From Mycobacteriales bacterium (GTDB taxonomy: Bacteria; Actinomycetota; Actinomycetes; JAFAQI01), in assembly GCA_035550655.1 (NCBI GenBank), contig DASZOU010000037.1, positions 19,159 through 83,158 of the forward strand: a DNA stretch of 64,000 bases, in the 5' to 3' direction. The translations under genes were made by a program, and so were the position numbers. The stretch's first letter is position 1. Each line of letters begins with the position of its first letter. The notes below the pieces were generated by a model. That model saw nothing but the letters and a program-made list of their open reading frames with translations, was not told the origin of the DNA and ran no database searches. Shown piece after piece: positions 1,513 through 35,606 of the stretch.

Positions 1513-3554
1513 GGCCTGCGGAGCTCGACGTTGAGAGCCGACGGCGCGCTCGCCCCGTAGTTGAGGGAGTACACCCCGCCGATGAGATCTGGGAGCTGAC
1601 CGGGCAGCGGCGTCAGGTGCGGCGTGTCCGAGGTGGACAGCGTGAGTCGAAGCCGATCGCCCTTGGCGATGGTCGCGAGCGTGGGGAAGATCTCGATGTC
1701 GTACCTGGTCACCCGGCCGGGGACCACGTGCTTCGCCGCGGCCAGCGTGTACGAGTGGTACGGCAGGAGCAAGACACCGTGCGACGTCCAGCTCCGGCCG
1801 CGGTCCACGGCGCGCAACGACCCGAGCAACGCTCCCTCGGTCAGCGGGTAGGACGACCCGCTGGGCGTGACGTCGTCGACAGTTGCGACCCACTGCGTGT
1901 TCGTGGTGGTGGCGCTCGCGTAAACCGTGGCGGAGATGGGACCGGCGATCGCCTCGGCGGAGCGGAACGGTGCCGAGGTGAAGCTGACCTGACCAGGTCC
2001 GAGCTTTGACGCCGTGTCGTCGTCGGCACACGGAGCCATGAGACCCGCCATGTGACTCGGGATGGAGACCCCGCCCATCGACCACTGGTCGATCGGGCGA
2101 CCGCACGGGCTCCCAGCCGGCAGCCACGCGAGGGTGGTGTGCCCGGACCCAGCTGGCTTGGTGCGCAGCGCCTGCCCCGGCGCAAGGTAGAAGCGGGTCG
2201 GTCGGGTATGGCTGAACGGGTAGGTCGTCGTCTCGTCGAAGCGTCCGGTGCCGAGGTCGTAGTAGTGCAGCGGCGTCGGCGTGTTCGCCATGCCGGTGTG
2301 CTCGCCCTTGAGCCACGTGTCGAACCATTCGAGCTCGAGATAGTCGACGTCTACCGCCGACCCGTTGAGGTGCTCCCACGGGCCGTCGATCAGCTGGTAG
2401 CGACCGGTGACCTGCTGTCCGGGGCGCATCGGCGCGGTGACGCCGCGGCCGGCCCACGCGTTCTGCAGCTCGGCGTAGTTGATCGGTTCGCCGTGCTGGA
2501 AGATGTCGAACTCACCGCCGACGAGGAACGCCGGGATGTGGTTGGCGACGATCCGCCGCAGCACCGACTGTGGGGAGCGCTGCTTCCAGTAGTGCTCGTC
2601 GTACGCCGCGGGTGCGCCGGTCAGGGTGGCGGCGGTAAAGGCCGCGTGGTAGCTCGCCAAGCCGTTGATGTGGTCGGTCTCGATCGTCTCGAGCTGGTCG
2701 ATCAGCTTCTGATCGGTGAGGGTGTCGGTGACCGGTCCTTCCGTGTTCAGCGCACCGGTCAGCCCGAGATAAGCGGTGCTGAACTCCGCGTCGAGCAGGC
2801 CGCCCATGAACGACGTGTCGCGGTACGGGTCGTTCGCCGTCACCATCGGGAAGATCGCCTTGAGCGGCGAGTGCTTCCCGACCGCGCCGGCGAGCAGAGC
2901 CTGGTCGATGCCGAGGTAGGACGGTCCGTACGTGCCGACCCGGCCGTTGGAGTGCTTCAGATGCGCTGCCCAGCGCAGGACCTTGATCGCATCCTTCTGC
3001 TGGATCGGGTCGAACAGGCCCCACGAGCCGCCGGAGTCACCGGTCCCCCGCACGTCCTCGACGATGTCGATGTAGCCCCGTTGCACGAGGTAGTTGTTGG
3101 CCCCGCCCGTCGCGCTGCCGCCGCTCGAGGTCTGCGCGGTGCCGGGACCGCTCGAGCCGCCGCTGCCCTTGCCGTACGGCGTCATCGTCATGATCACCGG
3201 AAACGGTCCCTTGGCGGGTCTGCCGTGAGTCGTCGGGTAGATCTCGTTGACCCGGATCGTCGTGCCGCCGGCGCCCTTGACGGCGATGTCGTTGTGCGAC
3301 GCGGTCCCGTAGGTCGCCCGCTCCGGCTGCCAGTGACTGCCCGGAGAGGTGCTCGCGTTGACCACGCTTGCCGGCAGCTCCGGGCTGAGTCCCACCAGGC
3401 TGGGTGGCGCGTCGAGCACCTTCGGCCCGGACACCTGCGCGGCACGAGCCGCGCCTGGCCCGGCGGCCAGGAGCGCTGCGCAGAGGCCGGCGACGGTGAT
3501 CAGGTATGTGTTGGCACGACGCGCCGACCGGTCCGTCACAGTCGCCATGATCAC
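1509..3554 (-). CDS. CocE/NonD family hydrolase (S15 X-Pro dipeptidyl-peptidase/acyl-esterase fold), secreted
   Basis: 681-aa ORF with an N-terminal signal-like hydrophobic stretch. The central region resembles the S15 catalytic serine region. It is paralogous to the ORF at 47397..49736 (shared YGxxYxxPxGP, SYxGI and C-terminal beta-sandwich blocks). Confidence 0.75.
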   Translation of the reverse strand: MIMATVTDRSARRANTYLITVAGLCAALLAAGPGAARAAQVSGPKVLDAPPSLVGLSPELPASVVNASTSPGSHWQPERATYGTASHNDIAVKGAGGTTIRVNEIYPTTHGRPAKGPFPVIMTMTPYGKGSGGSSGPGTAQTSSGGSATGGANNYLVQRGYIDIVEDVRGTGDSGGSWGLFDPIQQKDAIKVLRWAAHLKHSNGRVGTYGPSYLGIDQALLAGAVGKHSPLKAIFPMVTANDPYRDTSFMGGLLDAEFSTAYLGLTGALNTEGPVTDTLTDQKLIDQLETIETDHINGLASYHAAFTAATLTGAPAAYDEHYWKQRSPQSVLRRIVANHIPAFLVGGEFDIFQHGEPINYAELQNAWAGRGVTAPMRPGQQVTGRYQLIDGPWEHLNGSAVDVDYLELEWFDTWLKGEHTGMANTPTPLHYYDLGTGRFDETTTYPFSHTRPTRFYLAPGQALRTKPAGSGHTTLAWLPAGSPCGRPIDQWSMGGVSIPSHMAGLMAPCADDDTASKLGPGQVSFTSAPFRSAEAIAGPISATVYASATTTNTQWVATVDDVTPSGSSYPLTEGALLGSLRAVDRGRSWTSHGVLLLPYHSYTLAAAKHVVPGRVTRYDIEIFPTLATIAKGDRLRLTLSTSDTPHLTPLPGQLPDLIGGVYSLNYGASAPSALNVELRRP

Positions 3555-3591
3555 GGTTGTTGCCGGCCGCCGGTCGGGCGGGCGGGCTCGA

Positions 3592-4344
3592 TCAGACGTG
3601 CGCCTTGACCAGGCGCCGCTGTCCGGCCGCGTCCAGCACCGTGAACCGGACCGATCCCTTGGTGCCTTGAACGCGCCGGGTCACGACGATCCGCACCTTG
3701 TTGCGGCCGCCCTTGAAGTGCTTCGAACCCGGTTTGCCGAGGTTCCACTTGCAGTGACGAAGCTTCACGTTGCTAAGACCGGTGATCCGGCTGCCGCGCG
3801 CGAACATCATGATCACCACCCGGGTCGGGTGACGTTCTGTCGCCGTCTCGTGGCGGAAGCCCACCGTCGGGGTGTGAGCCGTCGCTGACGGGCTCGGCGT
3901 CGGAGTGGCGGTCGCTGTCGGATGGGTCGCCGTAGGAGTGGGTGTGGGGGTGCTGGTCACGGTCGACGTGGGGCTGGGCGAGACCGTCTGCGAAGGGCTG
4001 GGTGAGGCACTCGGCGACGACGTCGAGCAGAGCCCGGGCAACGGGATCGGGAGGGGGCACGAGTCCGACGATGTCGACGTCGCCGTAGCGGTCGCCGTTG
4101 CCGTCGCCGTCGCCGTCGCGGTCGTAGTGGCGGTGGTGCTCGCCGTCGGCGACGAGGAGTCGCAGACGCCGGGCAGCGGGAGCGGGACAGGGCAGGCCGC
4201 TGCCGGTGCGGCGGCGGGAGCCGAGGCCGGGCCTGCGGGAGCCGCCTGTGCCGCGACGATCCCGACGCCGGTGATCCCTGTGGCCGCGGCCGCGACGGCG
4301 AGGAGGGCCACGCGGTATCGCGCGGTCGGTGTCAGTTCGCGCAT
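3592..4344 (-). CDS. secreted Thr/Ala/Pro/Ser-rich protein with small basic C-terminal domain
   Basis: 250-aa ORF with a signal peptide (MRELTPTARYRVALLAVAAAATG) and a long TATATATAT / SPSPT low-complexity linker encoded by a GCCGTC-type hexamer repeat. C-terminal 90 aa are basic and globular-looking. No family recognised. Confidence 0.55.
   Translation of the reverse strand: MRELTPTARYRVALLAVAAAATGITGVGIVAAQAAPAGPASAPAAAPAAACPVPLPLPGVCDSSSPTASTTATTTATATATATATATATSTSSDSCPLPIPLPGLCSTSSPSASPSPSQTVSPSPTSTVTSTPTPTPTATHPTATATPTPSPSATAHTPTVGFRHETATERHPTRVVIMMFARGSRITGLSNVKLRHCKWNLGKPGSKHFKGGRNKVRIVVTRRVQGTKGSVRFTVLDAAGQRRLVKAHV
4075..4140. repeat. imperfect GCCGTC/GTCGCC hexanucleotide tandem repeat inside the coding sequence
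   Basis: About 9 to 10 units encode the (TA)n/(AT)n tract of the Thr/Ala-rich secreted protein at 3592..4344. The repeat is frame-preserving. Confidence 0.6.
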
Positions 4345-15872: not shown

Positions 15873-18434
15873 GTGACCGCCGAGAACCTGACCCTCGTCG
15901 AAGCGGAGGAGCGGCGGCGGTTGCTCGACGTCGCGCTCTACGACGTCCAGCTCGACCTCACGACCGCGCTGTCCGAGCCGCGCCGGTTCCGCTCGACCAC
16001 ATCCGTGACGTTCAGCTGCATCGAGCCAGGCGCAACCGCCCACCTGGACATCACTGCGGACCTCGTCGAGTCCGCGACGCTCAACGGAACCCCGATCGAC
16101 GTCGAGCGGGCATTCAACGGGCAGCGGCTCATGCTGCCTCCGCTGGCGGCGGCCAACGAGCTCACCGTGGTGGCCCAGTGCGTCTACTCGCGCAGCGGCG
16201 AGGGACTGCACCGCTTCGTCGACCCCGTCGACGGCGAGGTCTACCTCTACACGCAGTTCGAGACCTTCGACGCGCACCGCATGTTCGCGTGCTTCGACCA
16301 GCCCGACCTGAAGGCCGTCTTCCGGATCATGGCCGACGCCCCCGATCACTGGCGGGTGCTGTCCAACATGCCGTCAAGCGTCGAAGGCGGCCGGCACATG
16401 TTCGAGCCGACCCCTCGGCAGTCGACGTACATCACTGCCCTCGTGGCCGGACCGTACGAAGGGACCACCGCTACGCATGACGGGATCGATCTCGGCGTGT
16501 ACTGCCGACGGTCGCTGCTCGAGCATCTCGACGCCGGGGACATCCTCGAGGTGACCCGGCAGGGCTTCGACGCCTTCCACGCGCTGTTCGAGACGCGCTA
16601 CGCCTGGCCGAAGTACGACCAGGTGTTCGTGCCCGAGTTCAACATGGGCGCGATGGAGAACGCGGGCTGCGTGACCTTCACCGAGGACTACATCTTCCGG
16701 TCACGCACCACGGACTACTCCTACGAGCGCCGGGCCGTCACCGTCCTGCACGAGATGGCGCACATGTGGTTCGGCGACCTCGTGACGATGAAGTGGTGGG
16801 ACGACCTCTGGCTCAACGAGTCCTTCGCCGAGTTCGTCTCGACCCACGTCACGGCGGGACACACCCGCTGGCCCGACGTCTGGACCTCGTTCTGCAACGC
16901 CGAGAAGACCTGGGCCTACCGGCAGGACCAGCTCGCGACCACACACCCGATCGCCGCGGACATCCCCGACATCGAGGCGGTCACCACCAACTTCGACGGA
17001 ATCACCTACGCCAAGGGCGCCTCGGTGCTGAAGCTGCTCGCCCACTGGGTCGGCGAGGACGCGTTCTTCTCGGCCACGCGCAGCTACTTCGCCAAGCACG
17101 CCCACTCGAACACGACCATGCAGGACCTGCTCGACGCACTCGAGGCGGCGAGCGGCCGCGATCTGTCGGCGTGGACCCAGCAGTGGATCCAGACGGCGGG
17201 CGTCAACACGTTGCGCGCCGAGTTCGAAACCGACGCGGAGGACTGCTTCACCTCGTTCGCTGTTCGCCAGACTGCGCCCGCCGAGCACCCGACCTTGCGG
17301 ATGCACCGACTGCGGATCGGCCTGTACGACGAGGGAGCCGACGGGCTGCGCCGGCAACGCCAGCTGGAGATCGACGTCGCCGGCGAGCGCACCGAGGTGC
17401 CTGACCTCATCGGCGTGGAGCGGCCCGACCTCGTACTGCTCAATGACGACGACCTGACGTACGCCAAGATCCGGCTCGACGACCGGTCGTGGCACACGCT
17501 CGTCACGTCGATCGGCCGGCTCACCGATCCGCTGGCTCGCACGCTGTGCTGGACCGCAGCCTGGGACATGACCCGCGATGCCGAGGTGAGCGCGGGCGAC
17601 TACCTCGACCTGGTCATCGCCGGCGTCGGCCAGGAGACCGAGGTCGGGACCGTCCAGACCTTGCTGCGGCTCGCCGCGCAGGCGATCGACCCGTACGGCG
17701 ATCCCGCTCGCAGCACGGAGCGCCGCACCCGGCTTGCGGCACGTGCCTTCGAGCTGCTCGACGCGAACCCGCCGGGCAGCGACCTGCAGCTCGCCTTCAC
17801 CCGGGCCGCGGCCGCCAACGCGACATCACCGGACCAGCTCGACCGGGTCGCGGCGCTGCTCGAGGGCAAGGAGCAGGTCGACGGGCTGGTGGTCGACACC
17901 GAGCTGCGCTGGCTGTTGCTGCACCGCCTGGTGGCCACCGGCCGTGCCGATGACGCCCGCATCGACGCCGAGCTCGCCCGCGACGACACCTCGGCCGGTC
18001 GCTGCCACGCGTTGACGCTGCGCGCGGCGCGGCCGAGCGCCGCCGCGAAAGCCGAGGCATGGCGGCAGGTCGTCGAGCACGAGGAGCTTCCCAACGCCGA
18101 GCAGGAAGCAACGATCGCCGGGTTCGTGAGCTACGAGCAGCGCGACCTGCTCGAGCCGTACGTCGACGCCTACTTCGGCGCGATCGGCGAGCTTTACCGG
18201 ACCCGCTCGGCCGAGATGGCCCAGCAGCTGATCGCCGGGCTGTACCCGTACTGGGCCACCGACGTCTCCACCATCGAGCACACCGAGGCGTATCTCGCCG
18301 CCGAGGAGCCCGGCGCCGCCCTGCGCCGCATGCTCCTGGAGGGACGCGACGCTCTGGCCCGCGCGCTGCGCTCGCGCGAGCGCGACATGGCCGCCGCCAC
18401 CCGCCCCCTCTTGGATGCGCCGAGCTCAACGTAA
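15873..18434 (+). CDS. pepN: aminopeptidase N (M1 family)
   Basis: Start trimmed to in-frame GTG (MTAENLTLVEAEERRRLLD). It has the gluzincin motif HEMAHMWFGDLVTMKWWDDLWLNESFAEF (HExxH plus E) and a GAMEN-type block (MGAMENAG). The stop codon is immediately followed by the repeat element. Confidence 0.9.
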   Translation: MTAENLTLVEAEERRRLLDVALYDVQLDLTTALSEPRRFRSTTSVTFSCIEPGATAHLDITADLVESATLNGTPIDVERAFNGQRLMLPPLAAANELTVVAQCVYSRSGEGLHRFVDPVDGEVYLYTQFETFDAHRMFACFDQPDLKAVFRIMADAPDHWRVLSNMPSSVEGGRHMFEPTPRQSTYITALVAGPYEGTTATHDGIDLGVYCRRSLLEHLDAGDILEVTRQGFDAFHALFETRYAWPKYDQVFVPEFNMGAMENAGCVTFTEDYIFRSRTTDYSYERRAVTVLHEMAHMWFGDLVTMKWWDDLWLNESFAEFVSTHVTAGHTRWPDVWTSFCNAEKTWAYRQDQLATTHPIAADIPDIEAVTTNFDGITYAKGASVLKLLAHWVGEDAFFSATRSYFAKHAHSNTTMQDLLDALEAASGRDLSAWTQQWIQTAGVNTLRAEFETDAEDCFTSFAVRQTAPAEHPTLRMHRLRIGLYDEGADGLRRQRQLEIDVAGERTEVPDLIGVERPDLVLLNDDDLTYAKIRLDDRSWHTLVTSIGRLTDPLARTLCWTAAWDMTRDAEVSAGDYLDLVIAGVGQETEVGTVQTLLRLAAQAIDPYGDPARSTERRTRLAARAFELLDANPPGSDLQLAFTRAAAANATSPDQLDRVAALLEGKEQVDGLVVDTELRWLLLHRLVATGRADDARIDAELARDDTSAGRCHALTLRAARPSAAAKAEAWRQVVEHEELPNAEQEATIAGFVSYEQRDLLEPYVDAYFGAIGELYRTRSAEMAQQLIAGLYPYWATDVSTIEHTEAYLAAEEPGAALRRMLLEGRDALARALRSRERDMAAATRPLLDAPSST

Positions 18435-18531
18435 GAGGCTGATCGCATGTGACATTGGTGTCGCGAATCGCGACGTCTATGTGACATGCGCGTCGTGATT
18501 CACCGCCCCTATGTGACATGCGGGCGAGGCG
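18435..18531. repeat. structured intergenic repeat, copy 1
   Basis: Three copies of the ATGTGACAT near-palindrome sit at 18447, 18479 and 18511 (32-bp period). The perfect palindrome GTCGCGAATCGCGAC lies between copies 1 and 2. Copy 1 is homologous, in reverse complement, to 34995..35095. Confidence 0.8.
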
Positions 18532-19557
18532 TCACAGCGGCGGAGGCCAGGCGGAGCCGTCGCTCTCGTCGGAGCCGATGACGGCGGCTACTCGCTGCAC
18601 CAGGCGCGGCGCGAGCAGCACCAGACCCAGCTCCCGGTCGTGAAGCAGCGAGGCGTCGCTGAGGTTCTCCGAGCCGACAAAGGCCATGCCGCCCGGCCGG
18701 CCGGCATCCACCGCGATCAGCTTCGCGTGCAGGTAGAGCGGCCGCTCGCCGTACATCACCCGGATCCGCGCCCCGACCCGGGTCAACGCCGCGAAGGCGG
18801 GCCGCCACTTGTCGGAGTAGGTCATCGCGACGCTGACCTGCACTCCCCGGCGGGCGGCGGCGAGGAGGGCGGACACCACCGCCGGGCTGGTGAGCTCCTC
18901 GCTCTCCAGCGCGACCGAGGAGCGCGCGCGGCCGATCATCGCGAGGACGTCCGCCCACGACTGGCCCGGGCTCCACACCAGGTCGTCCGCGGGCGGGACG
19001 GCGCCCTGACCGCGCAGGTCGGCCGTGAAGACCGACTCGATCGCCGCGACGTCGACGCGATCGACGTCGACGACCGCGGCATCCCGGCTGGTCGCGTAGT
19101 AGCGCGCGGTGAGGTTGAGCGACATGATCACGGCGGTGCGGCCGTCGATGACGAATGCCTTCTCGTGGGTCGCGAAGTAGCGCGGGGACGACCACGCGAC
19201 GTGCGCCCCGCGCCGTGAGAGGTAGTCGTACGCCGGCTGGTTGCGCACGCGCTCGAGCCGGCGGTCGAGGATGACCCGAACCCGCACGCCACGTCCGGCG
19301 TCGCTCGCGAGGATCTGCTCCGCGGTCGGGTCGTCGAGCTCGTACATCGTCAGGTCCAGCGAGCGGCGAGGCGAGGACAGCAGGGCGTAGATCGGCGCCA
19401 TGCCGTCGTCGGGCTCCACGATCAGCCGGTCGCCGCTCGCTGCCGGCGGTGCGACCGACGGCAGCGCGGCTGCCGGACGCCCGGTTCGACCGAGCGAGTG
19501 CCAACCCAACGCCGCGAGAACAGCCAAGGCAGCGACGACGAAGCGGGGCGATCTCAC
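18532..19557 (-). CDS. phospholipase D-like domain protein (two HKD motifs), secreted
   Basis: Start trimmed to GTG giving a signal peptide (MRSPRFVVAALAVLAALGW). The listed upstream extension would overlap the AI-2E gene. HKD motifs HEKAFVIDG and HAKLIAVD are present. Confidence 0.7.
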   Translation of the reverse strand: MRSPRFVVAALAVLAALGWHSLGRTGRPAAALPSVAPPAASGDRLIVEPDDGMAPIYALLSSPRRSLDLTMYELDDPTAEQILASDAGRGVRVRVILDRRLERVRNQPAYDYLSRRGAHVAWSSPRYFATHEKAFVIDGRTAVIMSLNLTARYYATSRDAAVVDVDRVDVAAIESVFTADLRGQGAVPPADDLVWSPGQSWADVLAMIGRARSSVALESEELTSPAVVSALLAAARRGVQVSVAMTYSDKWRPAFAALTRVGARIRVMYGERPLYLHAKLIAVDAGRPGGMAFVGSENLSDASLLHDRELGLVLLAPRLVQRVAAVIGSDESDGSAWPPPL

Positions 19558-30692: not shown

Positions 30693-30729
30693 CGGGCTGG
30701 AGCGGCACCTCTCGAGCGTTGGTGCGTGC

Positions 30730-30802
30730 CAAGCAATGTGGCATTGCCCCAGTGATTTCCTCGAAATCTGAGGGAACTGGTCATGCAATGCCACATTGCT
30801 TG
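30730..30802. promoter_or_regulatory. AT-rich nested palindrome: 18-bp perfect inverted repeat around an inner hairpin; candidate bidirectional terminator or operator pair
   Basis: CAAGCAATGTGGCATTGC at 30730..30747 is the exact reverse complement of 30785..30802. Each arm is itself palindromic (GCAATG-NNN-CATTGC). The spacer contains the palindrome GATTTCCTCGAAATC and flanking CCAGT/ACTGG. The site lies between the convergent SDR and phosphotransferase genes. Confidence 0.6.
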
Positions 30803-30820
30803 CGCGATCGGTAGCGCCCG

Positions 30821-31914
30821 TTACAGGCCGTTGGTGAGGGCGGCGTTGCCGGCGTTGACCAGCGGCGCGATTCGCACCGCCATCTCGACGAACCCGTCGC
30901 CGATCATCGCGCCGGCGAGCCCGCGCGCCGCCACACCAGCGATGATCGCTGCGAGCTTGAAGCACGCGAACGCGACGTACCACGGCATCTCGCTGAGGTC
31001 ACGACCGCTGCTCTTCGCGTAGCGGTCGAGCAGCTCGCGCCGAGTCGGGAACCCCGGCAGCGTCGTGACCGTCGGCAGCACGCCCGCCGTCAGCTCGCTG
31101 GTCTCGTCGCCGGCGTCCTGCCAGTAGATGTAGAACATGCCGAGGTCGGCGAGCGGGTCGCCGAGGGTCGACAGCTCCCAGTCGAGGACCGCAGCGATCC
31201 GGCCCGGCGTGGTCGGGTCGAGCATCACGTTGTCCATGCGGTAGTCGCCGTGCACGATCGGGCCTGTCGGGGCCGCCGGAACCCTTGCCGTCAGCCGCTC
31301 GGCGAGCCGGTCGAGGTCGCTGCCATCTCCTTGGAGCGCGTCACGCGTCGCCTGCCACTGCGTCGTCCAGCGCCGGATCTGGCGCTCGAGATAGCCGTCG
31401 GGCTTTCCGTAGTCACCGAGACCGACCTCTGCCGGCTCCACCGCGTGGAGGTCGGCCATGACATCGATCAACCCGTGCGCGATCGCCAGCCGTTCCTCGG
31501 GTGACTCCGCGTAGCCGTCCGGCAGCGTGTCCCGGACGATGTGGCCGACGACGCGTTCCATCACGTAGAACGGCGCACCGATCACGTCCTCGTCGGTGCA
31601 CATGGCGAGCGTGGGTGGAACCGGCACCGGCGTCGGCCCGAGCGCCGTCATCACGCGGTGCTCACGCCCCATGTCGTGCGCGGTCGGCAGCCGGTTCGAC
31701 AGCGGCGGGCGCCGCAGCACCGCCTCGCCGGCTGCGGAGGTGACACCGAAGGTCAGGTTCGACTTGCCCCCGGAGATGAGCTCGAGCCGGCAGTCACGCC
31801 AGCCGTCGTCACCGAGCTGCTCGGCCAGGTAGCGCCCGACCGCCTCGCGCGGAACGGCCTGCTCGGTCAGGGTGGCAAGATCCGCTTCTGTCACGGGACG
31901 GTACGTTACCGACA
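30821..31914 (-). CDS. phosphotransferase family protein (APH/choline-kinase-like fold)
   Basis: The start is ATG at 31914 or GTG at 31894. [10 protein letters not shown] matches the Brenner motif HGDxxxxN, and the DWE block is also present. Confidence 0.7.
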
Positions 31915-33182
31915 TCCACGCCGACTCACTTCTCGCGCACGACGCCGCGCACGTGTGGCATCCGTACGCCGCGATGCCGGCGAGCCCCGCGCCGTACCTG
32001 GTCGACAGCGCGAGCGGGGTACGCATCCGGCTGCGCGACGGCACCGAGCTGATCGACGGCATGGCGAGCTGGTGGGCTGCGATCCACGGCTACCGGCACC
32101 CGGTCCTCGATGCCGCCGCACATGCCCAGCTCGACCGGATGTCGCACGTGATGTTCGGCGGGCTCACCCACGAGCCCGCGATCAAGCTCTCCGAGGAGCT
32201 CCTCGCGATCGTCCCGGCGCCACTGCGCCGCGTCTTCTTCGCCGACTCGGGATCGGTCGCCGTCGAGGTGGCGATCAAGATGGCATTGCAGTACTGGCAG
32301 GCCTGCGACCGCCCCGCGCGCAACCGGCTGCTCACGATCCGCGGCGGCTACCACGGGGACACGTTCATGGCGATGTCCGTGTGCGACCCGGTCGGCGGCA
32401 TGCATCACCTGTTCACCGGTGCGCTGACCGAGCAGGTGTTCGCGCCGATGCCGCCCGTCGAGGCGGGCGACGAGCAGTGGCGATCGCAGACCGCCGACCT
32501 CGTCGAGCGGCACAGCGACTCGCTCGCCGCCGTCATCGTCGAGCCGGTGGTGCAGGGCGCCGGCGGGATGCGCTTCTACAGCCCTGCGTACGTCGATCAC
32601 CTGCGCGCACTGTGTGACCGGCACGGCTTGTTGCTGATCCTCGACGAGATCGCCACCGGCTTCGGTCGGACCGGCACGATGTTCGCGGCCGAGCACTCCG
32701 CGACCTCCCCCGACATCATGTGCGTCGGCAAGGCGCTCACCGGCGGCTACCTCTCGATGGCAGCCACCTTGTGCACCGATGCCGTCGCCGACGCGATCAG
32801 CTCGGGTCCGGGCGGTGCCTTCATGCACGGCCCGACGTTCATGGCCAACCCGCTCGCAGCGGCGATCGCCGCGGCAAGCCTCGAGCTGCTGCACACCAAC
32901 GACTGGAAGGCGCAGGTCGGGCGCGCCGAGACCGCGCTGAAGGACGGGCTGGCACCGGCGCTGGAGCTCGACGGGGTTGCCGACGTCCGGGTTTGCGGCG
33001 CGATCGGGGTGATCGAGCTGGCCGATGCGGTGGACGTCGACCGCGTGACGAGGCGGGCGATGAGCGAGGGCGTGTGGCTCCGGCCGTTCCGTAACCTCAT
33101 CTACGCCATGCCGCCCTACATCTGCACCGAGGACGACCTCGCCACGATCTGCCGCGCAATGGTCGCCGCCGCCGCAGCATGA
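31872..33182 (+). CDS. bioA: adenosylmethionine-8-amino-7-oxononanoate aminotransferase
   Basis: [17 protein letters not shown] and the PLP-lysine block [11 protein letters not shown] are present. It is followed by bioF and bioD. Its start overlaps the divergent phosphotransferase start. Confidence 0.85.
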
Positions 33183-34312
33183 GCCGCGCGTACGACGAGT
33201 GGCTCGCAGCAGTTGCGCGCCACCGGCAGGCGGAGGGCCTGTCCCGACATCTCACCCATCGGCGCAGCGGTGACCACCTCATCGACGTCGCGAGCAACGA
33301 CTACCTCGGGCTCGCGACCGACCCGCGGGTGCTGACGGCAGCCCAGGAAGCACTCACGGCCTGGGGTGCCGGCTCGACCGGATCCCGGCTGGTGACAGGA
33401 AGCACCGCGCTGCACGAGGAGCTCGAGACCGCGCTGACGTCGTTCGCCGGCGGTGAGGCGGCACTCGTCTTCTCGTCCGGCTACACCGCCAACCTCGGAT
33501 TGATCACCGCCCTCGGCGGATCGGACACGCTGATCGTCTCCGATGCGCACAACCACGCGTCGATCATCGATGCCTGCCGGTTGTCGCGGTCGCGCGTGGT
33601 CGTCAACCCGCATCGCGACCTCGCCGCCGTCGACGTGGCGCTCGCCACGCGTAGCGAGCAACGGGCGCTTGTCGTGGTGGACGCCGTGTTCAGCACCGAC
33701 GGCACAACCGCTGATTTGACCGCGTTGCATGACGTCTGCCGGCGGCGCGATGCGGTGCTGGTCATCGACGAGGCGCACTCGGTGGGGGTGCTCGGGCCGG
33801 GCGGTCGAGGCATCGCGCACGCCGCAGGCATCGCTGACGCACCGGACGTCATCCGCACGGTGACGCTGTCCAAGGCGCTCGGCAGCCAGGGCGGTGCCGT
33901 GCTCGGGTCGGCCGCCGTGATCGACCACCTCATCAACACCGCGCGGACCTTCATCTTCGACACCGGGCTGGCTCCGGCATGCGTTGCAGCTGCGCATACC
34001 GCGATCACCGTGGTTGCCGCTGAGCCGGATCTCGTGTCGAGAGTCGGTCACTGCCGGGATGAGATCGCGACGGCCCTCGATGTCCCGACCCCCGCCGGCG
34101 CAGTGGTCTCGCTGGTGCTCGGCAACCCGGCGCTGACCGTCACGGTCGCTGACGCTTGCCGTGACGCCGGTGTCGTCGTCGGCTGCTTCCGGCCGCCTTC
34201 GGTTCCGCCCGACGGAAGCCGGCTTCGGCTCACCGCGCGGGCGAGCCTCACCGATGTGGAGGTCAAGGAGGCCACATCGGTCGTCCTCGAGGCGATCGAG
34301 CGGCTGCGGTGA
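33179..34312 (+). CDS. bioF: 8-amino-7-oxononanoate synthase
   Basis: [18 protein letters not shown] and [11 protein letters not shown] (PLP lysine) are present. It has a 4-nt overlap with the bioA stop. Confidence 0.85.
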
Positions 34313-35010
34313 AGCGCCTCGTCGTCACCGGGACCGGAACGGAGATCGGCAAGACGATCGTCACCGCCGCCCTCGCGGCTCTTGCGCGAGCAGCTGGGCA
34401 GCGAGTGGCGGTCGTCAAGGCCGCGCAGACCGGGATCGAGCCCGGCGACGAGAGCGACACCGACGTCGTCACCCGACTGTCCGGGGTCGACGACGTGCAC
34501 GAGCTGGTGAGGTATCCGGCCCCGCTTGCACCGGCGAGTGCGGCCCGTCTGGTCGGCATCCCAGCGACGCCGGTGGCCGAGCTGGCTCGCCGTACGGCGG
34601 CGATCACCGGCCGCGACCTGGTCCTGATCGAAGGCGCGGGTGGTTTGCTCGTCCGGTTCGACGCGGACGGCGCGACGATGGCAGACCTCGCGGCGGACCT
34701 CGGCGCCGAGGTGCTGGTCGTCGCTCCCGCCGGCCTCGGGACCCTCAACTCGACGGCGCTCACCTGCCGGGAGCTGCGGCGGCGCTCCCTCACGTGCGCG
34801 GGAGTCGTCGTCGGCTCCTGGCCCGCAGCTCCCGACCTGGCATCGCGTACGAACCTCGACGACCTGCCGTCGTACGCCGAAGCGCCACTGCTCGGCGTGC
34901 TACCCGCGGGCCTCGGGACCGTCGACCGGCGGACCTTTCTCGAAGCTGCCCGCGCCGGGCTCGCCCCCGAGCTGGGCGGCGGGTGGCACCGCCCCGCGAC
35001 ACCTATGTGA
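34309..35010 (+). CDS. bioD: dethiobiotin synthetase
   Basis: GTG start overlapping the bioF stop. P-loop VTGTGTEIGKT and IEGAGG are present. The TGA stop lies inside the first ATGTGACAT repeat unit. Confidence 0.85.
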   Translation: MKRLVVTGTGTEIGKTIVTAALAALARAAGQRVAVVKAAQTGIEPGDESDTDVVTRLSGVDDVHELVRYPAPLAPASAARLVGIPATPVAELARRTAAITGRDLVLIEGAGGLLVRFDADGATMADLAADLGAEVLVVAPAGLGTLNSTALTCRELRRRSLTCAGVVVGSWPAAPDLASRTNLDDLPSYAEAPLLGVLPAGLGTVDRRTFLEAARAGLAPELGGGWHRPATPM

Positions 35011-35095
35011 CATACGGGTCGTGAATCGCGACACCTGTGTGACATACGGGCGGCTTTTCACAACACCTATGTGACATGCGATCAGCCTCTTGCGT
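34995..35095. repeat. structured intergenic repeat, copy 2 (inverted relative to copy 1)
   Basis: ATGTGACAT-type units sit at 35005, 35037 (GTGTGACAT) and 35068, with a 31-32 bp period. GTCGTGAATCGCGAC lies between units. The end GCGATCAGCCTC is the reverse complement of the GAGGCTGATCGC end of copy 1 and contains the stop codon of the convergent thioesterase gene. Confidence 0.8.
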
Positions 35096-35606
35096 CGTTC
35101 GGCGGAGCGCCCGGCTCGTCCGGCGCCTGGTAACGACCAGCCCGCCCCTCCGCCGGCAGTACCACCTGCGTGCATCGGCTGGTGGCCAGCACCTCCCCCG
35201 GGATCTCGCCTCGGTAGAGCTCCGCGGCACAGAACACCACCCGCCGGGTACGGCGCACCACCCAGCCTTTCGCCGACAGCGTGCCGACTTCCGCCGACCG
35301 GAGGAACTCGACCCGCAGGTCCGCGGTGAGGAACGCCTGGTCACGATCGAGCACGGTCCAGCAGGCGCCCCCCATCGCGGCATCGAGCAGTGCGGTCACG
35401 AGTCCGCCCTGCACGATCGGCCCACCCGCGGTGCGGAAGCAGTAGTCAGGCGTCGCGTCCCAAGCGATCGTCGTACCGCCCGGTTCCCACGCGAGGCGTC
35501 GATAGCCGAGCGTCGCCCACAGGTGCGGCGGCGTCGCCCTCGCGTGGTCCCACTGGTCGGCATCGGCGAAGCGCTCGCCGGGTGCGATGCGTGGTGGCTC
35601 GCTCAC
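35082..35606 (-). CDS. PaaI/hotdog-fold thioesterase
   Basis: 174-aa ORF. GGLVTALLDAAMGGA and the downstream hotdog core suggest the 4HBT/PaaI family. Confidence 0.65.
   Translation of the reverse strand: MSEPPRIAPGERFADADQWDHARATPPHLWATLGYRRLAWEPGGTTIAWDATPDYCFRTAGGPIVQGGLVTALLDAAMGGACWTVLDRDQAFLTADLRVEFLRSAEVGTLSAKGWVVRRTRRVVFCAAELYRGEIPGEVLATSRCTQVVLPAEGRAGRYQAPDEPGAPPNDARG

Follow-up and report, generated by a model that had tools for sequence, protein, structure and literature searches.

Two short intergenic repeats occur in the 64,000-nucleotide stretch of a Mycobacteriales bacterium metagenome-assembled genome (MAG) analysed here (contig DASZOU010000037.1; hereafter the window), one after the aminopeptidase N gene pepN (copy 1) and the other after the dethiobiotin synthase-like gene bioD (copy 2). 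Each is a solo copy, partly decayed, of a palindromic repeat that is dispersed and probably non-autonomous. The reading we favour, with a probability of about 0.6, is that of an element resembling repetitive extragenic palindromes (REP sequences), which would be recognised as double-stranded DNA by a protein combining a winged helix-turn-helix (wHTH) with a Vsr-like nuclease domain, and would be transcribed as a 3'-end hairpin once inserted. This reading draws on a family of such arrays dispersed in related genomes, their location at gene 3' ends, an insertion between pepN and a phospholipase D (PLD)-like gene, and a gene family that is bracketed by the arrays.

A genome scan (one genome per species) with the pattern ATGTSACAT-N23-RTGTSACAT returned at least 110 loci. 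About 65 of the matches listed are three- to five-unit arrays with a strict 32-bp period in DNA of 68-70% G+C, and two more lie on short contigs that are probably mis-binned. The family comprises at least 65 copies in about six related Mycobacteriales and Frankiaceae MAGs, among them Frankiaceae bacterium LS_ISSM_2_bin.122 (at least 16 loci), Mycobacteriales bacterium SMAG_U6130 (at least 15), SMAG_U6196 (at least 14), SMAG_U6222 (at least 13) and SMAG_U6086 (at least 1), which removes the possibility, entertained in the original prediction, that the two window copies stand alone. Several contigs start or stop inside an element, as expected of a repeat that breaks assemblies. No account of this repeat family was found in the literature on actinobacterial REP repeats, REP-associated tyrosine transposases (RAYT) and MITEs (miniature inverted-repeat transposable elements), or on AbiEi and DUF559 proteins.

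The canonical element was derived after the copies had been oriented by their sole asymmetric feature, the V spacer. It is about 117 nt long and can be written G-n-TCGY - U - V - U - S - U - S - U - RCGA-n-C, where U is the near-invariant 9-mer ATGT-S-ACAT, present four times. The three spacers are 23 nt long, GC-rich and palindromic; the S spacer reads rGGTGTCGYGAWTCRCGACMCCt, a palindrome with an A/T-rich centre, and the V spacer reads aGGTGTTGTGACAnnnCGCcCgc. Each module is a 31-nt palindrome (ACAT + spacer + ATGT), and modules follow one another with a period of 31/32 bp. The ends form terminal inverted repeats (G-n-TCGY-ATGTSACAT at one end, ATGTSACAT-RCGA-n-C at the other) with short inverted (G)ATCGC bounds. 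Among the copies yielded by profile search and alignment, 38 are complete with four units and 27 are shorter or longer, the number of units per array varying from 2 to 5. As in REP sequences, the basic unit is an imperfect palindrome of 20-40 bp that is repeated, and all copies are intergenic. The structured, REP-like intergenic family originally proposed is supported. The GTAG/CGTC tag by which REPs are defined (PMC3733652, a source that nowhere mentions Actinomycetota) does not occur in the family consensus; instead ATGT/ACAT flank both sides of each hairpin. A clustered regularly interspaced short palindromic repeat (CRISPR) array was rejected, the repeat being just 9 bp, the 'spacers' conserved palindromes and the units only 2-5. 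Searched against Rfam 15 at the gathering threshold, the window returned only two tRNAs, and an E-value search of two full elements returned sub-threshold microRNA-like hairpin matches only.

Gene calls based on G+C content at third codon positions (GC3) identified 53 elements with a gene on each side. The flanking genes are convergent for 27 of them, co-directional for 26 and divergent for none, so that all 53 adjoin a gene 3' end; the distance to a stop codon is mostly below 50 bp. At the same loci divergent gaps account for 17% of the gaps and 28% of the intergenic bases (P = 6e-5 by gaps and 2e-8 by bases for 0/53), and convergent gaps are enriched threefold for elements. REP sequences have the same bias towards convergent and co-directional gaps, downstream of coding regions (PMC3733652).

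Presence/absence of copy 1 indicates insertion. The orthologous pepN/PLD pair lacks the element in four of four relatives, namely L111 (U6222), L112 (U6130), L113 (DASZTL) and L115 (U6196; loci and proteins are designated here by L and P numbers), whose pepN proteins are 85-87% identical to that of the window and whose pepN and PLD stop codons overlap by 4 bp or lie 4 to 20 bp apart. The family is present at other places in at least three of these genomes. Copy 1 is thus an insertion of about 100 bp, specific to its lineage. Its effect can be read in the flanking genes: the pepN C-terminus is about 9 residues longer in the window than in the orthologues, and the PLD protein ends in WPPPL-stop, with the stop inside the element, where relatives end in WPP-stop, WLP-stop or WPPS-stop. 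It had been stated at first that the element matched no recognised mobile element; the empty sites, the frequent contig breaks and the resemblance of the gene-plus-array units described below to REP/RAYT units all speak against this.

Within the window the 9-mer ATGTGACAT occurs five times against 0.08 expected, a count that no shuffled sequence reached. The three motifs reported for copy 1 do start at 18447, 18479 and 18511, in exact 32-bp steps; the remaining two start at 35005 and 35069 in copy 2, whose central unit is a variant (GTGTGACAT at 35037). All six TGTSACA heptamers of the window fall within the two copies. The 15-bp palindrome between units 1 and 2 of copy 1 was also found as described (GTCGCGAATCGCGAC, 18460-18474, with 7-bp complementary arms and a central A). 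Copy 1 wholly occupies the 97-bp gap between the pepN stop codon (TAA, 18432-18434) and that of the PLD-like gene (TCA, 18532-18534). Copy 2 is enclosed by bioD and a convergent gene for a 4HBT thioesterase, the bioD stop codon lying inside its first 9-mer and the thioesterase stop inside the terminal GCGATCA. Both are truncated three-unit relatives of the four-unit element.

Two statements about copy 2 need correction. A second copy does exist (34994-35084), but it had been called inverted. Because the element is quasi-palindromic, the copies align about equally in both orientations (78% identity over 76 nt directly, 76% over 91 nt inverted); the V spacer, the sole polar feature, gives both one orientation (canonical strand '-'), and they are therefore not inverted relative to each other. 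Likewise, the 12-mer GAGGCTGATCGC, taken as a boundary of the element, is present exactly twice in the window (18435-18446 on the plus strand and 35078-35089 on the minus strand), but only its (T)GATCGC part is element terminus. At copy 2 the rest is the end of the thioesterase gene: the adjoining GAGGCTGA is the conserved Arg-Gly-stop end of this gene and is also found in the syntenic Frankiaceae locus L011, which is without copy 2 and whose orthologue keeps the C-terminus ...ARG-stop.

The pattern of conservation points to a site in duplex DNA. Conservation is 97.9% at the eight arm positions of the 9-mers, compared with 76% in the spacer columns, and the unit centre is G or C in 152 of 152 cases, the search pattern having forced only two units per element. 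Of 76 pairs of units that are partners in the hairpin, 45 have complementary centres (p=0.14); for elements with the core ATGGSCCAT, introduced below, the count is 54 of 91. A central G:C pair kept in either orientation fits a two-fold symmetric duplex site and is not what a single-stranded motif predicts. Since the arms are conserved, the centre is G/C whatever its pairing partner, and the wHTH-nuclease genes are always flanked by arrays, it is very probable that the phased palindromes serve for recognition by a protein; the initial idea of an array bound by a dimeric protein survives.

At the RNA level full copies form one long hairpin (z-scores -5.7 to -9.2), but covariation is nearly absent: RNAalifold applied to the 38 full copies finds almost no compensatory changes, on which account a classical structured RNA was rejected as the main explanation. 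Between opposite arms, C/T and G/A changes are statistically independent of each other, and departures of the spacers from consensus comprise 307 transitions and 321 transversions. In co-directional contexts the sense RNA is more stable than the antisense RNA in 18 of 25 elements, with a mean difference of -4.2 kcal/mol (Wilcoxon p=0.013), against -0.7 kcal/mol and 53% favouring the sense strand in coding controls. On the sense strand G.T-type mismatches number 136 versus 86 of the A.C type, with an excess in 18 elements against 5, and element polarity has no bias with respect to transcription (13 of 25). There is moderate evidence that the transcribed hairpin matters, and the position of the element makes it part of 3' transcript ends, in line with the 3'-untranslated-region role put forward at the outset. 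A scan of positions 18300-18700 revealed no U-tailed intrinsic terminator and no T run after the hairpins, though tail-less terminators may occur. A reading of TGTGA/TCACA as a CRP/GlxR-like site or NrdR box was dropped, given the misfit of half-site spacing and the avoidance of promoter regions by the arrays.

The candidate for the recognising protein comes from genes that the arrays enclose. At L034, and at the orthologous site L022 on another contig, one gene is tightly flanked by two elements. Its 313-aa product has 199 homologues at E<=1e-5, all within this clade. The contigs that carry many of them measure only 1-2 kb, as though assemblies had broken at the repeats. Arrays stand on both sides of the family gene at 11 of 11 loci, which represent eight genomic sites (L022, L034, L116, L117-119, L120, L121/L122, L123, L124, L125, L227 and L233), and no other gene is bracketed by arrays in about 450 kb of element-bearing loci. 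The arrays are of 4+4 units at L116 (P0122), 2+2 units with a 31-bp period at L117-119 (P0132) and 3+3 units at L120 (P0138), a different genomic site; ATGGSCCAT arrays flank the gene at L121/L122 (P0155; 31-bp period, a third site) and at L123 (P0162; 32-bp period), GATGTSACAT arrays of 31-bp period at L124 (P0194), and 65-nt repeats containing a 38-nt palindrome at L125 (P0238). The same layout recurs throughout: the upstream array lies about 30-110 bp before the start codon, 80-100 bp being typical and L120 having 30 bp, and the downstream array begins 4-25 bp past the stop codon. At the ptsI/MFS (major facilitator superfamily) site, a complete element of four units stands on either flank, each with its own termini and with the V end outward. 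At L120 and L123 the two flanks are direct repeats of 93-97% identity; at the other loci they are inverted with V ends outward, or ambiguous. The genomes of L116 and L034 each have 14-15 solo-bearing loci among the matches listed.

The array 9-mer, ATGTSACAT or ATGGSCCAT, changes with the protein clade. P0155 and P0162, both within ATGGSCCAT arrays, are 67% identical and mutually closest among nine proteins compared, and they are 52-56% identical to proteins of the ATGTSACAT group. Such co-variation implies a specific and lasting partnership. A metagenome scan with ATGGSCCAT-N22/23-ATGGSCCAT gave at least 120 loci; 88 of those listed are high-GC, most of them two-unit hairpins with lineage-specific arms, and a family homologue is present in only two of the loci listed (L227 and L233), both times bracketed.

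The partner protein is assigned to an AbiEi-like wHTH joined to a Vsr/DUF559-like PD-(D/E)XK nuclease fold. The AlphaFold2 (AF2) model has a pLDDT of 92, and Foldseek comparison agrees with the assignment. Searches of Pfam, NCBIfam and PDB sequences with the flanked protein returned nothing significant, the sole matches, a PDB chain with E=0.94 and a Pfam family with E=0.21, being at chance level, so that its identity comes from fold comparison and relatives only. A profile search with the family gathered 13,443 cluster representatives at E<=1e-3, and among relatives at 32-49% identity 11 of 26 match Pfam AbiEi_4, 8 of 26 MTES_1575, a Vsr-type restriction endonuclease (PMC3710099), and 4 of 26 DUF559. 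With an N-terminal AbiEi-type wHTH and a C-terminal Vsr-like fold, the protein falls within the AbiEi_4 + DUF559/MTES_1575 superfamily. Invariant residues of the family include E196, D229, H239-E240-x-N242, H247, Q257 and R259.

These observations can be joined in a tentative scheme. The 9-mers would be read as duplex DNA by a cognate protein of about 313 aa encoded elsewhere in the genome, for which the 31-32 bp period, about three helical turns, would make every site face the same side of the helix. By promoting breaks or recombination, this protein might cause the arrays, and the gene cassette, to be copied into new intergenic sites, where inserted copies would persist only downstream of genes. 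Copies that are transcribed would form a long RNA hairpin, possibly acting as a 3'-end barrier or as a terminator between convergent genes.

Several observations count against this scheme. The partner gene is absent from the 64-kb window, and the window genome's own cognate gene was not seen. The nuclease motif is H-E-x-N (HExNG...H) rather than the E-x-D of DUF559, which makes catalysis uncertain. Many copies share orthologous sites in genomes with about 80% identical flanks, and movement must therefore be rare; together with the mean identities between copies (78% at orthologous sites, 72% at non-orthologous sites in different genomes, 76% within one genome), this makes the family an old one with slow turnover. 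No direct repeat was found outside the termini that could be a target-site duplication, the end GATC is itself palindromic and could be terminus or target, and no precise junction rule was definable from the copies examined; in the one filled/empty pair L047 and L049 the junction falls just after TGATC. The non-uniform orientation of the flanking arrays fits integration into a pre-existing array as well as an inverted-end transposon. Finally, the sense-strand asymmetry is modest and could also stem from a transcription-linked mutation bias.

The closest known parallel is with REP sequences and their mosaic (BIME) and doublet (REPIN) forms together with RAYT proteins. Here too short, GC-rich imperfect palindromes form arrays or doublets that fold into longer hairpins, and are present in tens to hundreds of extragenic copies. 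The location downstream of coding regions, between convergent and co-directional genes, is also shared (PMC3733652). As in REPtrons, a low-copy gene is flanked on both sides by cognate repeats that are dispersed in the same genome, and protein clades are paired with repeat families. The flanked protein, however, is an AbiEi-like wHTH with a Vsr/DUF559-like domain and not an IS200/IS605-type HUH tyrosine transposase; an invariant 9-bp palindrome in place of the GTAG/CGTC tag separates the hairpins, the 31/32 bp period is strict, the host phylum is Actinomycetota, and the symmetric G/C centre points to duplex recognition, whereas RAYT acts on single-stranded hairpins. The protein also recalls AbiEi antitoxins such as Streptococcus agalactiae AbiEi and Mycobacterium tuberculosis Rv2827c, since AbiEi proteins bind co-operatively to sets of inverted repeats (PMC7319586). 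It differs from them in its extra C-terminal Vsr-like nuclease domain, in having no DUF1814 toxin gene next to it at the loci examined, and in that the repeats are dispersed genome-wide and not confined to one promoter. A further likeness is to the 'EDxHD' homing endonuclease I-Bth0305I and to Vsr/DUF559 proteins; the former is homodimeric, has a target with a pseudopalindromic core of 14 bp and leaves a footprint of about 60 bp (PMC3239194). The partner gene, unlike that of I-Bth0305I, is not in an intron or intein, is flanked by repeat arrays and has the motif HExNG...H with putative catalytic competence.

Other explanations were weighed against the same observations. The arrays might primarily be RNA elements, selected as 3'-untranslated-region hairpins (bidirectional terminators or exonuclease barriers) in which the 9-mers make RNA-protein or RNA-RNA contacts and the link to the nuclease gene is incidental. 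Copies beside gene 3' ends only, the threefold convergent enrichment, the strong hairpins, the favoured sense-strand fold with its excess of G.U-type mismatches, and the view that REPs with the same location bias act as RNA (PMC3733652) are all in accord with this. We nevertheless consider it unlikely, as the two arms vary independently (Y/R) with almost no compensatory change, the primary sequence of the 9-mer is invariant with centres that are G/C without regard to pairing, neither a U-tail terminator nor an Rfam match was found, the pepN/PLD pair functions without the element in four relatives, and the bracketing of one gene family at 11 of 11 loci is left unexplained. Similarly doubtful is the idea that the arrays are landing pads, arising and spreading by another route, and that a selfish, homing-endonuclease-like wHTH-Vsr cassette cleaves solo arrays and is copied or integrated into them. 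The near-identical direct repeats at L120 and L123 are what integration into, or duplication of, one array should leave behind, and the gene does occupy different sites in different genomes; yet the complete, outward-facing elements at the ptsI/MFS site and the co-variation of array core with protein clade argue otherwise, and the arrival of solo arrays at new sites such as pepN/PLD would still have to be accounted for.

A conventional MITE, that is, a deletion derivative of a DDE insertion sequence with terminal inverted repeats GATCGCATGTSACAT mobilised in trans, would account for the short inverted termini, the length of about 85-150 bp, the intergenic location, the presence/absence polymorphism and the contig breaks at copies. 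The ERIC/IRU, Correia/NEMIS and RUP elements, which are MITEs, indeed offer likenesses: they are about 100 nt long, have terminal inverted repeats, form an overall hairpin and are transcribed with their neighbours, and bacterial MITEs are intergenic and polymorphic in presence. Such an origin is nonetheless very improbable here, because no clear target-site duplication was found, no parent DDE insertion sequence and no transposase open reading frame with these ends occur in about 1 Mb of loci, the wHTH-Vsr gene is the only gene bracketed by arrays, and the interior is a modular, phased array of 2 to 5 units instead of two ends plus filler. We give hardly any credence to static binding sites of a chromosomal regulator or nucleoid protein without mobility. 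Extremely conserved palindromes phased on one helical face would suit such a protein, but none of 53 arrays is in a divergent, promoter-bearing gap, the pepN/PLD insertion is lineage-specific, the number of units varies, truncated copies are tolerated and some overlap stop codons. The REP-like, DNA-recognised repeat remains our preferred interpretation; the features of the window copies are collected in the table.

Table. Features of the two repeat copies and of the adjoining genes in the 64-kb window
Feature	Position	Strand	Remarks
Copy 1, truncated	18440..18538	-	nhmmer family profile 80.3 bits, positions 22-120 of 121; outermost V-end 9-mer missing
Terminal hexamer GATCGC, element end of copy 1	18441..18446	.	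preceding GAGGC is flank
9-bp palindromic unit ATGTGACAT, copy 1	18447..18455	.	exact match
23-nt spacer with palindrome GTCGCGAATCGCGAC, copy 1	18456..18478	.	compare family spacer consensus
9-bp unit ATGTGACAT, copy 1	18479..18487	.	exact match
23-nt spacer GCGCGTCGTGATTCACCGCCCCT, copy 1	18488..18510	.	
9-bp unit ATGTGACAT, copy 1	18511..18519	.	exact match
V-spacer-like remnant GCGGGCGAGGCGTCACAGCGGCG, copy 1	18520..18542	.	compare L090 end spacer GCGTGCGAGGTGTCACAGCACGC; holds PLD-like stop and overlaps last codons of PLD-like gene
Copy 2, truncated	34994..35084	-	nhmmer 82.7 bits, profile positions 2-92; last unit missing, runs into bioD 3' end
9-bp unit ATGTGACAT, copy 2	35005..35013	.	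contains bioD stop TGA (35008-35010)
9-bp unit, variant GTGTGACAT, copy 2	35037..35045	.	
V spacer, copy 2, AGGTGTTGTGAAAAGCCGCCCGT on '-' strand	35046..35068	-	matches family V consensus aGGTGTTGTGaCAC..CGCcCgc
9-bp unit ATGTGACAT, copy 2	35069..35077	.	
Terminal hexamer GCGATC, copy 2	35078..35083	.	overlaps thioesterase stop (TCA, 35082-35084)
pepN, aminopeptidase N	15873..18434	+	853 aa as annotated in source MAG; Pfam Peptidase_M1, ERAP1_C; 100% identical to P0001 and HWC36781.1
PLD-like gene, convergent with pepN	18532..19419	-	Pfam PLDc_2
bioD, dethiobiotin synthase-like	34309..35010	+	Pfam AAA_26
4HBT thioesterase gene, convergent with bioD	35082..35606	-	Pfam 4HBT; syntenic with L011

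Comparison of the window with L011 gave some further observations. The bioA-bioF-bioD operon and copy 2 (window 31872-35081) are absent from this otherwise syntenic locus (L011 6602-6634), in which the thioesterase and phosphotransferase genes are neighbours with about 30 bp between them; hence the operon represents an indel, with copy 2 at its right edge. A composite transposon bounded by the two copies, which are 16.5 kb apart, was rejected, as both are truncated and of the same polarity and the interval holds ordinary metabolic genes, part of it syntenic with L011. A separate 84-nt hairpin with a perfect stem lies at window positions 30725-30808 between convergent genes for a short-chain dehydrogenase/reductase (SDR) and the phosphotransferase; its arms carry AATGTGGCATTG and CAATGCCACATT, and it folds with an energy of -66.8 kcal/mol (z = -4.6). 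In its place the orthologous site of L011 has a complete ATGTSACAT element of four units, with a duplicated remnant of the last SDR codons flanking it.

Other repeats were seen near family members. A second conserved motif, ...CCGGCCCGTTGCGYTGGCACGCTCGY, stands 20-50 bp outside the V end of many elements (L045, L052, L055, L056, L059, L085 and others), which suggests mosaic, BIME-like combinations of repeat types. Where L008 (1830-1990) and L092 (4246-4538) carry an element, L057 has a 1.1-kb insert (2753-3865) that encodes another AbiEi-like protein (weak PF09407 match) and is flanked by a different inverted repeat containing CGCGAACTTGCA.

Outside the focal clade, ATGTGACAT-N23-ATGTCACAT with lineage-specific stems occurs in Rhodococcus, Streptomyces, Nocardioides, Pseudonocardiaceae, Acidimicrobiia and Thermoleophilia, which suggests that the repeat superfamily is broad within Actinomycetota. 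These are single hairpins in cultivated and uncultivated Actinomycetota (L043/L101 in Rhodococcus, L104 in Streptomyces cylindrosporus, L105 in Nocardioides fonticola, L021, L001/L094 and L013/L033/L077), and the cultivated hosts could be used for experiments. The metagenome contigs L140-L259 hold a large and diverse high-GC set of the form arm-ATGGSCCAT-N22-ATGGSCCAT-arm' with lineage-specific arms (for example CAACAGCG...CGCTGTTG, GGTGGTCG...CGACCAC and GGATGA...TCATCC), and they appear to be many sub-families of one design. A low-GC 32-bp tandem repeat in a Candidatus Thioglobus MAG (L076 1-197; six identical units with ATGTCACAT and no palindromic spacers) is probably unrelated. Fourteen matches in viral contigs, none of them high-GC (12 at 0.33-0.50 GC, two at 0.51 and 0.61), were treated as unrelated to the family on their GC content.

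As an example of domesticated or selfish DNA, REP repeats with their RAYT partners are of textbook standing, but they are essentially proteobacterial and tied to HUH transposases. A REP-like genome pattern, made up of palindromic arrays dispersed at gene 3' ends, insertion polymorphism and a low-copy gene bracketed by cognate repeats, is now found in soil actinobacteria that are uncultured, and the partner here belongs to another enzyme superfamily. We would go further only with reserve, since it is a rather speculative proposition that this is an unrecognised mobile or selfish system, widespread among high-GC soil Actinomycetota, in which the place of the HUH, DDE or serine enzymes of known elements is taken by a wHTH + Vsr-like PD-(D/E)XK nuclease. 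Phased 9-bp palindromes in duplex DNA (ATGN-S-NCAT, repeated every 31-32 bp) would be recognised by this enzyme, which would drive the spread of its own cassette and of hundreds of solo arrays, its clades having co-evolved with array 'dialects'. In practical terms, the arrays break MAG assemblies and can alter gene ends, as here they supply the stop codons of bioD and the PLD-like gene. The compact putative recognition code, a 9-bp palindrome at a fixed 31/32-bp phase, is open to dissection in vitro. For the roughly 13,400 representatives of 'hypothetical' AbiEi_4/DUF559-like proteins with no assigned role, the partnership suggests a testable function, and it may represent a new route of DNA mobilisation or homing.

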